Shown: one piece after another, positions 1 to 33,823 of the stretch | Position numbering within the stretch: position 1 is the first letter of the stretch | Layout of the letters: each line of letters begins with the position of its first letter | Assembly: GCA_049840735.1 (NCBI GenBank) | Contig: JASGJN010000020.1 | Location: forward strand, 32,001 to 96,000 | Direction of reading: 5' to 3' | DNA length: 64,000 bases | DNA from: Anaeromyxobacter sp. | GTDB lineage: Bacteria > Myxococcota > Myxococcia > Myxococcales > Anaeromyxobacteraceae | Program-made: the position numbers and the translations under genes | The notes under the pieces: model-generated | What the model was told of the DNA's origin: nothing | Databases searched by the model: none | The model's input: the letters and a program-made list of their open reading frames with translations, nothing else

Positions 1-2524
1 CGCCGCCAGCCCCAGCAGCGTCGGGTGGGGCCCGATCTCCACCAGCGCCGTGGCGCCGGCGGCCCGGAGGGCGGCGATGCCCGCGGCGAACCGGACCGGC
101 TCCCGCGCGTGCCGCCGGAAGTAGGCGGCGTCCGGGGCGACGCCCACCGGCATGAGCTCGCCGGTGAGGTTGGAGACGATGGGGATGCGCGGGGCCGCCA
201 GGGTGAGCCCCGCCGCGAAGCGCTCCAGCGGCTCCAGCATGGGGTCGAGCCGGTGCGAGTGGAAGGCGTGGGAGACCTCCAGCGCCCGCCCCTTCACGCC
301 CTCGGCGGCGAAGGCGGCCAGCACCTCGGCCACGGCCGGAGCGTCGCCGGGAGATCACCGTCTCCTCCGGGCCGTTGACGGCGGCGATGGAGAGCCGGTC
401 GCGCAGCGGGGCGAGCCGCGCCTCCACCCGGTCCGCGGTCGTGAACAGGGCCGCCATGGCCCCGCCGGCCGGGAGCGCCTGCATGAGCCGGCCGCGCTCG
501 GCGATGAGCGCCAGCCCCTCCTCCAGGCCGATGGCGCCGGCCACGCAGGCCGCCGCCAGCTCACCCACGCTGTGGCCCATCACGAAGGACGGGGTGATCC
601 CCCAGGCGCACCACTGCTCGGCCAGCGCGTACTCCAGGGCGAACAGCGCGGGCTGGGTGTAGCCGGTCTGGCCCAGCGGCGTCTCCTGCCCCTCGCGCGG
701 GAAGATCACCTCCAGCAGCGGCCGCTCCAGGCGCGGCGCCAGGAGCGCCGCGCAGCGGTCGAGCGCGGTCCGGAACACCGGCTCGCGGTCGTAGAGCCCG
801 CGCCCCATGCCCGGGTACTGCGCGCCCTGGCCGGTGAAGAGGAAGGCGATCCGGGGGCGCTCGCCGGGGCGCAGCGCGTGCTCGGCCGCCGCGGCCGGCA
901 GCTGGCCGCCGGCGTAGGCGCGCAGGTCCGCCTCCAGCCCCTGGCGCGAGTCGGCCACCAGGGCCAGGCGCCGCCCCTGCAGCGCGCGGCCGGTGGCGGC
1001 GGTCCGCGCCACGGCGGCCACGGTCAGGCCTGGGTCCTGCGCGAGCCGCTCGGCCGTGGCCGCGGCCAGCGCCCGCAGCCCTCCCTCGTCGCGCGCCGAG
1101 AGCGCCACCAGCGTGGGGGCGCCGGCGTCCGGGACCGGCGCCTCGGGCAGCGGCGCCTCCTCCAGGATGACGTGGGCGTTGGTCCCGCTGAACCCGAAGG
1201 CGCTCACCCCCGCGCGGCGGGGGCGCGCGCCGCGCGGCCAGGGGGTCAACGCGGTGGGCACCGCCACCGGCAGCTCGGCCCACGGGATGCGCGGGTTGGG
1301 CGTGGTGAAGTTGCGGTGCGGGGGGATGGCCTCGTTCCGCAGCGACTGGACCACCTTGAGCAGGCCGGCGATCCCCGAGGCGGCCTCGGCGTGGCCGATG
1401 TTGGTCTTGATGGAGCCGATCAGGAGCGGGCGCTCCCGCCTCGGCCCGCCCGACATGACCGCGCCCAGCGCCTCCACCTCGATGGGATCGCCGAGCGAGG
1501 TGCCGGTGCCGTGCGCCTCCACGTAGTCGAGCGCCTCCGGCCCCAGGCGCGCGCCCTGCAGCGCCTTGCGCACCACCGCCTGCTGCGCGGGGCCGCTCGG
1601 GACCGTGAGGCCACTGCTGCGGCCGTCGGAGTTCACGGCCGAGCCGCGGATCACCGCCAGGATGGGATCGCGGGCCGCCAGCGCGTCGGAGAGCCGCTTG
1701 AGGGCGATGACCGCGCAGCCCTCGGCGCGCACGAAGCCGTCGGCGGCCGCGTCGAAGGTCTTGCAGCGCCCGTCCGGCGCCATCATCCCCCACTTCGAGA
1801 ACAGCACCATGGGCTCGGGCAGCAGCACCACGTTGACGCCGCCGGCCAGGGCCAGGTCGCTGTCGCCGGCCCGCAGGCTCTGGCAGGCGAGGTGCACCGC
1901 CACCAGCGACGACGAGCAGGCGGTGTCCACCGAGACGCAGGGGCCCTGCAGCCCGAAGGTGAACGCGATGCGCCCGGCGGCGGCGTTCAGGGCGGTCCCG
2001 GTGGCGGAGTAGATCTCGGTCCGCTCCGAGCCGATCTCGCGCAGGTAGTGGAAGTAGTCGTTGGTGGTGATGCCCACGAACACGCCGGTGGCGCTGCCGG
2101 CCAGCCGGTCCGGCGCGATGCAGGCGCTCTCCAGGGCCTCGTAGGAGGTCTCGAGCAGCAGGCGGTGCTGCGGGTCGAGCCCGGCGGCCTCGCGGGGCGA
2201 GATCCCGAACAGCGCCGGCTCGAACTGGTCGATCTGGGAGAGGAACCCGCCGCGCCGCGTGACCATCCGGTCGGGGACGCTGGGATCGGGATTGTAGCAG
2301 GCGTCCACGTCCCACCGGTCCGCCGGCACGTCGGAGACCGCGTCCACCCCGTCGCGGACCGTCCGCCAGAGCCCGTCCAGGTCGACGATGCCGCCGGGAT
2401 AGCGGCACCCCGCGCCCACGATGGCCAGGGGCTCGTGGCGGCGCTGCTGCTCGGCCTCCAGCCGCTCCTCCAGCCGGTCGATGGCGGCGAGGGCGTCATG
2501 CAGGATCTGGCGACGTTCGGTCAT
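1..2524 (-). CDS. Modular type I PKS F (docking domain-KS-AT...), truncated at window edge; apparent +1 frameshift near 350
   Basis: Translated by hand from ATG 2524 (ATGA overlap with the DMT stop): MTERRQILHDALAAIDRLEERLEAEQQRRHEPLAIVGAGCRYPGG. KS DTACSSS, EAHGTGT, KTNIGH. AT QTGYTQPALF, GHSVG, and HAFH (malonyl-type) after the frameshift. Not in the ORF track. Confidence 0.93.
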   Translation of the reverse strand, partial: MTERRQILHDALAAIDRLEERLEAEQQRRHEPLAIVGAGCRYPGGIVDLDGLWRTVRDGVDAVSDVPADRWDVDACYNPDPSVPDRMVTRRGGFLSQIDQFEPALFGISPREAAGLDPQHRLLLETSYEALESACIAPDRLAGSATGVFVGITTNDYFHYLREIGSERTEIYSATGTALNAAAGRIAFTFGLQGPCVSVDTACSSSLVAVHLACQSLRAGDSDLALAGGVNVVLLPEPMVLFSKWGMMAPDGRCKTFDAAADGFVRAEGCAVIALKRLSDALAARDPILAVIRGSAVNSDGRSSGLTVPSGPAQQAVVRKALQGARLGPEALDYVEAHGTGTSLGDPIEVEALGAVMSGGPRRERPLLIGSIKTNIGHAEAASGIAGLLKVVQSLRNEAIPPHRNFTTPNPRIPWAELPVAVPTALTPWPRGARPRRAGVSAFGFSGTNAHVILEEAPLPEAPVPDAGAPTLVALSARDEGGLRALAAATAERLAQDPGLTVAAVARTAATGRALQGRRLALVADSRQGLEADLRAYAGGQLPAAAAEHALRPGERPRIAFLFTGQGAQYPGMGRGLYDREPVFRTALDRCAALLAPRLERPLLEVIFPREGQETPLGQTGYTQPALFALEYALAEQWCAWGITPSFVMGHSVGELAAACVAGAIGLEEGLALIAERGRLMQALPAGGAMAALFTTADRVEARLAPLRDRLSIAAVNGPEETVISRRRSGRGRGAGRLRRRGREGAGAGGLPRLPLAPARPHAGAAGALRGGAHPGGPAHPHRLQPHRRAHAGGRRPGRRLLPAARAGAGPVRRGHRRPPGRRRHGAGGDRAPPDAAGAGG

Positions 2525-3387
2525 GGCGAGGGCTCGGCGACGGCGTGGGAGGTCCGGGCGCAGGCCCAGGCCCCGGTCAGGAGGAGGAGTGGCGACAGCG
2601 CCAGGGCGGCGGGCGGCGGCGGCTGGCCCGCCGCGACGCCCAGGGCCACGAGGCCCAGCGCCGCCGGCAGCCAGGCCAGCGAGGCGGGGACCGGGACGGG
2701 CGCGAGCGCCGCCGTCCGCTCCAGCGTCCACAGGGCGAGCCCGCCGGTGAGGGCCAGGGCGGCCAGCACCGCCAGGTCGCGGGCCCCCGGGGTGACCCAG
2801 GCGCCCAGCACGCCCGGCGCGAGCACCAGCACCACGCCCGCCGCCGCGAAGGCGAGGTTGGTCCGGGCCGGCTCGCCGCGCAGGGCGCGGGTCAGCACCA
2901 GGTACAGGGCGAAGCAGCCGGCCATCGCCAGCGGCAGCAGCGCCCGCCAGGCCGGCGGCGGCGCCGCGGCCTGCAGCGCCGCCGCCGCGGCCACGAGCCC
3001 CACGGCCGCGACCACCCAGGCCGGCGCCGGCGCGCGCTCGGCCAGCAGCGCGCGGGCGAGGACCAGGGCCAGGGCCGGGCTGGCCGCCAGGGCCGCCACC
3101 GCCGCGCCGGCCGCCACGCCCGCGCGCAGGGAGAGGGCGAAGGTGATGGACAGGCCGGCCAGGGCCGCCGCCCGCGCGAGCTGGAGCGAGCGCCGCCGCG
3201 TCCGCCAGATGGGCGTCCGGGACCGCGCGGCCCAGGCCGCCAGCGCCGCGAGCAGCGCCAGGTGCTTGAGGAACACCACCTCCAGGGGCGGGAGCGGCGC
3301 GCGCAGCGCAGCGCCCAGCAGGAGGTCGGTGGCGAAGAGCCCGGCGAAGGCCGCCATGAGCGCCAGGCTGCGGTGGGCCGGGGTCAC
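2521..3387 (-). CDS. DMT/EamA-family transporter inside the PKS operon
   Basis: 288-aa, very hydrophobic multi-TM protein with EamA-like segments (EVVFLKH, WRTRRRSLQLAR, SPALALVLARALLAER). GTG start overlaps the PKS-E stop (GTGA). Confidence 0.75.
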   Translation of the reverse strand: MTPAHRSLALMAAFAGLFATDLLLGAALRAPLPPLEVVFLKHLALLAALAAWAARSRTPIWRTRRRSLQLARAAALAGLSITFALSLRAGVAAGAAVAALAASPALALVLARALLAERAPAPAWVVAAVGLVAAAAALQAAAPPPAWRALLPLAMAGCFALYLVLTRALRGEPARTNLAFAAAGVVLVLAPGVLGAWVTPGARDLAVLAALALTGGLALWTLERTAALAPVPVPASLAWLPAALGLVALGVAAGQPPPPAALALSPLLLLTGAWACARTSHAVAEPSP

Positions 3388-33767: not shown

Positions 33768-33823
33768 CGCGGGCACCGCCGCGGCGCAAGGAAGCTGCCT
33801 GAGCACACGGCCCCCATGACCAT
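33764..33823 (-). other. Possible 19-aa leader ORF coupled to the TEII start
   Basis: [11 protein letters not shown]-like sequence, then ATG...MVMGAVCSGSFLAPRRCPR-TGA. The stop overlaps the TEII GTG (GTGA). Confidence 0.3.

Follow-up and report, generated by a model that had tools for sequence, protein, structure and literature searches.

Among described assembly lines, the curacin A polyketide synthase (PKS) of Moorea offers the nearest solved structures for the locus treated here. Its layout comprises GNAT loading, a beta-branching cassette, a halogenase and a sulfotransferase-TE ending. Gem-dimethylating KS-AT-MT-ACP modules occur in the gephyronic acid (Gph) line of Cystobacter and in epothilone module 8, and Gph has many C-methyltransferase (cMT) domains, one of them in a module without KR. 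According to the accessible part of its description, the angiolam (ang) cluster of Pyxidicoccus has 12 modules in five genes, methylmalonyl-derived branches and four ketides after the amino acid, and no methionine-methyl incorporation is reported there (PMC10913735). The cluster analyzed here lies largely in a stretch of 64,000 nucleotides from Anaeromyxobacter sp. (the window; GCA_049840735.1, contig JASGJN010000020.1, G000:C20:32001-96000) and combines PKS modules with a nonribosomal peptide synthetase (NRPS). On balance, we lean towards reading it as a cis-AT hybrid PKS-NRPS, likely intact and likely imported, which is predicted to join a ~C15 methyl-branched keto-hydroxy acyl chain to glycine and one ketide and to release it by a thioesterase with a Cys nucleophile. 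Domains, motifs, order, orthology and insertion site were observed directly; expression is presumed.

With curacin, the cluster shares CurJ (cMT) and CurL (KS-AT) as nearest structures, single-module proteins with helical docking and embedded cMTs in a cis-AT line. It differs in having three cMT modules in a row, a glycine module and a terminal Cys TE, and it falls outside the curacin pathway, as GNAT loading, beta-branching cassette and sulfotransferase-TE were all missing from the cluster domains and the scanned flanks; the cluster has no halogenase either. Gph is likewise a myxobacterial cis-AT line with many cMT modules, one without KR. However, it starts with an MT-GNAT-ACP loading unit, is PKS only and follows another order, whereas the present cluster includes an NRPS, has no loading unit and does not belong to the Gph type. 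Angiolam, by the accessible part of its description, shares the myxobacterial PKS-NRPS-PKS architecture, a Gly/Ala-type A domain and cyclization by a TE; its published layout excludes it, as eight modules in eight proteins with three cMTs were found here (PMC10913735).

Every part of the cluster is of a known type, and the family as a whole is apparently uncharacterized. It is quite improbable that a characterized pathway outside the reach of this comparison is orthologous to the cluster. MIBiG, most subscription papers and supplements lay outside the coverage and cultured hosts exist, which speaks for such a pathway. However, no pathway-specific name was found on 240 homologous proteins listed, the five pieces scanned stayed below the cut-offs of all NCBIfam pathway models, the literature covered contained no description of the family, and angiolam is excluded. 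Within this scope (protein names, NCBIfam models and literature), no characterized match was found, in line with the original observation. For Hydrogenophaga SL48, the accessible part of PMC12993520 lists one T1PKS/NRPS region, of this or another family, without product.

Modules and genes of the assembly line

Genes were read by a codon-model walk and a Pfam scan of every reading-frame piece. The whole assembly line covers ~47 kb, and its leftmost point (C20:18499) lies 13.5 kb beyond the left edge of the window. The eight minus-strand genes within the window, together with the domain strings originally proposed for them, were recovered at the same place. The first is a stand-alone type II thioesterase (TEII, GHSMG; 32997..33767; PF00975, E 2e-50), with orthologues at 46-62% in nine of ten related regions. 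It is followed by M1 (KS-AT-KR-ACP, 28506..33000), which has a methylmalonyl-type AT (VASH), neither an N-terminal docking helix nor a loading domain, and one frameshift near 32736, and by M2 (KS-AT-DH-ER-KR-ACP, 22036..28509), a single open frame with a malonyl-type AT (YAFH). Three cMT modules come next: M3 (KS-AT-cMT-ACP without KR, AT motif HAAH, 17631..22039; one frameshift near 17822), M4 (KS-AT-DH-cMT-ER-KR-ACP, AT motif HAFH, 9993..17634; frameshifted near 11612, with a further, compensated pair of shifts near 17415/17350) and M5 (KS-AT-DH-cMT-KR-ACP, AT motif LAAH, 3384..9996; frameshifts near 9985, 8900 and 7562). After an intervening membrane protein gene, M6 (KS-AT-DH-ER-KR-ACP, AT motif HAFH) begins within the window (1..2524, frameshift near 349) and continues to C20:28113.

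All seven gene junctions in the window are 4-base ATGA or GTGA overlaps, in agreement with the original prediction. The short helical docking peptides it described were also present: M2-M6 have them at the N-terminus and M1-M5 at the C-terminus, and the N-terminus of M1 has none. An embedded DMT transporter had been proposed as well. An EamA/DMT-like membrane protein is indeed predicted from the sequence between M5 and M6 (2521..3387, minus strand; orthologues at 31-40% in five of ten related regions), but its own score of 22.8 bits is below the Pfam cut-off of 28.2, whereas the Polyangiaceae orthologue passes with 50.7.

When the locus was extended leftward, as had been suggested, the line was found to continue for 13.5 kb with the rest of M6, an NRPS (TubC_N-C-half C-A-PCP, about C20:28081-23900), M8 (KS-AT-KR-ACP-TE, C20:23905-18499) and a Sfp/HetI-type phosphopantetheinyl transferase (PPTase; C20:17729-18376, plus strand) convergent with the cluster. 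The modular PKS originally proposed is therefore a hybrid PKS-NRPS: the PKS modules stand, and the line runs on into a glycine-coded NRPS module, adds a further ketide and ends with a Cys thioesterase. The hybrid type is supported by TubC_N, the C-domain motif HHIAADG, AMP-binding and PP-binding matches, a KS8 in a clade of its own and the terminal TE with Cys at the nucleophile position (GYCGG). HHIAADG is read in the first NRPS C domain; only half of a second C domain remains. The A-domain code is DILQLGMIWK, which we take to be a glycine code. Twelve A domains were read from seven related clusters; 11 have the same code type and one differs. Four further NRPS proteins gave no code read-out. 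With one C-domain query, no other C domains were found in the assembly. The first NRPS of relatives often holds two docking-plus-C units, and in three relatives (L092, L100, L124) two complete C domains in such tandem units precede one A domain.

All seven PKS modules have the characters of a cis-AT modular type I PKS, i.e., a KS with Cys and two His, an embedded AT with GHSxG and an ACP with the attachment Ser. ACP1 reads GSL instead of DSL with the Ser kept, and two relatives have SSL/SSI at that site. The S-adenosylmethionine (SAM) motif ExGxGxG and the catalytic His followed by Glu were found in the methyltransferases of M3-M5, and among solved structures MT3 comes closest to 5THY, the CurJ C-methyltransferase of curacin (E 5e-60), which upholds the earlier assignment to the curacin-like cis-AT type. 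KS1 is closest, per single domain, to the CurL KS-AT 4MZ0; its top PDB match, 7ZMA, was dropped since that score was the sum of two weaker domains. VASH, found in AT1, is given as a methylmalonyl AT motif in the accessible part of PMC7327777. AT2, AT4, AT6 and AT8 carry YAFH or HAFH (malonyl), and KR1, KR2, KR4 and KR6 carry LDD-like motifs. In KR4, His replaces Tyr. This was rejected as a defect, because 41 of 48 relatives read share it (compared to 2/54 for KR2) and such a variant is noted in the accessible part of PMC7327777. Comparison with the signatures given there also led us to abandon an A-type assignment of KR5 and KR8.

Reading frames and origin of the cluster

Twelve net frameshifts and one compensated pair were counted in the cluster. 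At ~14 in 47 kb (0.30 per kb), the rate is nearly double that of conserved genes elsewhere in the assembly (25 in 153 kb, 0.16 per kb). Still, 18 of 110 such conserved genes are frameshifted as well. Six of the seven GAATC words in the cluster are located at frameshifts, and GAATC occurs in 6 of 20 housekeeping frameshift contexts against a background of 1.5%. Base-calling errors at methylated GATC sites would account for such a pattern. Because the affected conserved genes are this numerous and the shifts are enriched at GATC-like words, gene calls from this assembly should be taken with caution.

If the frameshifts were real, the cluster could be a decaying remnant that makes nothing in this host. 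The excess over conserved genes, the truncated second C domain, the missing second NRPS module and the lack of the cluster in all 91 other genomes of the host family would agree with this. We nevertheless consider decay improbable: the shifts concentrate at one sequence word and affect conserved genes too, no in-frame stop occurs within any gene along the codon-model path, the catalytic motifs are retained, and the short ending of the line is found intact elsewhere (see below).

The cluster was likely imported into the host. The genes for mutL and a PlsC-like acyltransferase are adjacent in all five same-genus genomes analyzed (seven fetched); in the present genome they are 53 kb apart with the cluster between them. 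The M3 module was found in none of the 91 other host-family genomes, 53 of which are ≥ 90% complete, and none of the 91 has more than two PKS dehydratase matches. The only C-methyltransferase match in another genome of the family turned out to be an unrelated NRPS and was discarded. The GC content of the cluster is 76-82%, compared to about 74% for the contig, and its GC3 (GC content at third codon positions) is 0.97-0.99. Host-like codon usage had been taken as a sign that no recent import had occurred. The usage is host-like, but the insertion site and the distribution point to import nonetheless, and the simplest reading is horizontal gain followed by adaptation, or a GC-rich donor. The PlsC-like acyltransferase (34239-35498 of the window) and a neighboring fatty-acid desaturase (35609-36514) are genus-conserved host genes outside the insertion.

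Relatives in other phyla and their endings

Homologues were listed with the M3 methyltransferase region as query. The matches listed include at least 119 other proteins with 58-76% identity, most of them ~1450-1500 aa long with the same domains; for the best 66, identity is 59-76% along most of the protein. Scanning GTDB genomes yielded 129 confirmed stretches, and collinearity was judged on the best 80. The order M2-M3-M4 is collinear in 56 of these 80 loci and differs in eight; 16 were too short to judge. The collinear loci belong to Pseudomonadota, Gemmatimonadota, Acidobacteriota, Verrucomicrobiota, Chloroflexota, Rokubacteria and Myxococcota, with Hydrogenophaga and Rhizobacter among the cultured carriers, and nine of them lack MT4. 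Carrier strains include Hydrogenophaga sp. ANAO-22, H. intermedia S1, H. borbori LA-38 and Rhizobacter sp. SG703. Thus, the cluster is not a feature of the Anaeromyxobacter-like host group, but one member of a collinear family that spans at least seven phyla. Matches of MT3 to plasmid records did not exceed 41% identity among the best 20 of 295, and M1 gave one partial KS match there.

Ten related loci were compared over about 80 kb each. Five (Hydrogenophaga, Gemmatimonadales, Nevskiaceae, Rhodopila and Polyangiaceae) have all of M1-M6, the NRPS and M8, followed by a second NRPS module, with ~40-66% identity per protein; the other five are without M8, or have a different order or first module. 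A quick maximum-likelihood tree was built from 74 KS domains, and in it all seven KSs of the cluster group with the KSs at the same position in relatives (SH-aLRT 99-100); this KS phylogeny had been among the checks originally proposed. The present cluster is a shortened form of the wider family, the usual form of which has a second glycine module. An Acidobacteriota relative (L115:11700-14086) starts with an AprA/GphF-like methyltransferase loading unit. In two cyanobacteria (L074, L075), a related MT is part of a terminal KS-AT-MT-TE after NRPS modules, which is a different cluster.

In many relatives, a pair of alpha/beta hydrolases related to the exosortase-associated hydrolases TIGR03100/TIGR03101 ends or adjoins the cluster, in contrast to the fused Cys TE of the present genome. 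A protein of the first type (hydr1) was found in 32 of 50 related genomes, mostly adjoining the cluster, with a partner of the second type (hydr2) where inspected. By position, about 30 hydr1-type proteins are no more than about 45 kb away from the M3 locus, contig identity being deduced from number and strand and uncertain for two. Three pairs were checked, and in each of them a Cys nucleophile motif in one partner corresponds to Arg at that site in the other. The best hydrolase scores (81-104 bits) stay below the TIGR03100/TIGR03101 cut-offs of 168 and 203, so the proteins are outside these families as defined. By position, 14 of the 18 genomes lacking hydr1 have a TE after an A domain near the cluster, with Cys in 13 of 13 motifs read. 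The present cluster shows a third form, with the TE fused directly to M8. The first half of its last carrier is nearer to the module-8 ACPs of relatives (13-16/30 compared to 8-14) and the second half to PCPs preceding a TE (18-26/40 compared to 9-16); judged by these residues, it looks like a fusion of the two carriers.

The same KR-ACP-TE ending was found in seven independent proteins with 61-67% identity, six of which have 1756-1820 aa in one frame, and one metagenome contig carries the NRPS, an intact M8 and a convergent PPTase in the same order. The short form is therefore natural, and assembly collapse was discarded as an explanation for the missing second NRPS module, since the ending is intact in independent sequences. 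The cluster is a real and probably intact, shortened member of a broadly shared PKS-NRPS family.

As a rule, multimodular assembly lines are patchily distributed and restricted to single lineages. A module order kept across seven phyla therefore points to a product under lasting selection. As to what that product serves, it seems unlikely, though worth stating, that it is part of a cell-surface lipid, with the terminal Cys enzyme passing the acyl-glycine chain to an envelope acceptor, e.g., exopolysaccharide. The frequency and proximity of the hydr1-type proteins and the Cys/Arg arrangement of the pairs would be consistent with this. Clear polysaccharide or exosortase genes were found beside four of nine related clusters (selected flanking open reading frames (ORFs) scanned), i.e., a glycosyltransferase, O-antigen ligase and flippase in Hydrogenophaga ANAO-22, an XrtA chain-length protein and kinase in Nevskiaceae, a flippase in Rhodopila and an exosortase in Acidobacteriota. 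The best fold match of a carrier-TE model (pLDDT 64, moderate) is AB3403 of Acinetobacter baumannii (PDB 4ZXH, E 3.5e-18, 28% identity), which activates glycine and has a Cys TE; it is a single NRPS module and no methylating multimodular PKS. On the other hand, five of the nine flanks contain no clear polysaccharide gene among the ORFs chosen, the hydrolases miss the cut-offs, and the present genome gave no match to the hydrolases, an exosortase or a ligase with single queries, its flanks being host genes.

A broader form of this idea is likewise less likely than not: the PKS-NRPS, among the most widespread uncharacterized megasynthases of soil and water bacteria, would make a conserved methyl-branched acyl-glycine lipid, which the Cys acyl-transfer device attaches to the surface or exopolysaccharide, and the present copy would be a shortened, horizontally moved one releasing the free form. 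If surface attachment were true, the exosortase-type hydrolase pair would gain a substrate, and a megasynthase would become part of envelope biosynthesis. As the Hydrogenophaga and Rhizobacter carriers are cultured and harmless, what the line makes and what the terminal hydrolase pair does are open to direct tests. The natural variants (with or without MT4, ER6, the second NRPS module or a loading unit, and with a fused TE or a hydrolase pair) are useful for studies of C-methylation and release.

Predicted product and minor features

For the favored reading of an intact hybrid line with Cys-TE release, gene order was taken as the working order. The cluster contains no loading module, and M1 begins directly with its KS. 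A short acyl starter, probably propionyl-like, would enter M1 directly; this guess is based on the methylmalonyl-type AT of M1 and the loading units of two relatives (AprA-like MT-ACP and ACP-KS-AT-AT), both of which take short acyl groups. M1 would add methylmalonate and leave a hydroxyl, M2 would reduce fully, and M3 would methylate once or twice and retain the ketone. M4 would methylate, followed by full reduction, M5 would methylate and leave a hydroxyl or an alkene, and M6 would again reduce fully before the NRPS attaches glycine. Malonate addition and reduction by M8 would then give a 4-amino-3-hydroxybutyryl end. From a propionyl-like starter, the expected C15 acyl chain would carry 13-OH, a 12-methyl, 9-oxo, one or two C8 methyls, a 6-methyl, 5-OH or an alkene and a C4 methyl, and would be amide-linked to the 4-amino-3-hydroxybutyryl end. 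The TE would most likely close a macrolactone on the M1 hydroxyl (13-OH; 19-membered on this count); alternatively, hydrolysis would yield a linear acid. The original expectation of a reduced, multiply methyl-branched polyketide is kept as to the multiple branches and partial reduction. One branch is predicted not to be SAM-derived, because the M1 AT is of the methylmalonyl type, and one ketone would be retained, because M3 has no KR.

Apart from the frameshift rate and the half C domain, whose catalytic half is gone, several observations weigh against this reading. AT3 (HAAH, variable among relatives) and AT5 (LAAH) depart from the standard motifs, DH5 has an unusual motif and is absent from one relative, and both standard stereo-signatures are missing from KR5 and KR8; several positions of the product are therefore uncertain. 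No starter-supplying gene was found within the island, and an AprA-like MT gave no match in the genome with one query. The gene order is rearranged in some relatives and is thus no proof of the working order. M3 may be gem-dimethylating, as hinted at by its missing KR and by an AT3 motif other than HAFH in most relatives; the accessible part of PMC7327777 gives no sequence signature for it.

Left of the PPTase, the same insertion contains an ORF of 223 aa (C20:16971-17642, minus strand) with an HxD...H pattern that recalls 2-oxoglutarate oxygenases; it had no Pfam or NCBIfam match and no counterpart in any other fetched locus. Further left is a large PKD-domain protein (C20:13450-16921), which is probably secreted and appears to be interrupted by a frameshift. 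An Rfam scan of the window found no family. Upstream of the operon, a weak candidate for a sigma-70-like promoter (33846..33875, minus strand) was noted by consensus match alone (9/12 matches; one seen compared to a mean of 0.0 in 50 shuffles). Outside the window, a region at C20:767800-779300 contains four KS-like domains, an AT and a DH in a layout that recalls a pfa-type polyunsaturated fatty acid synthase.

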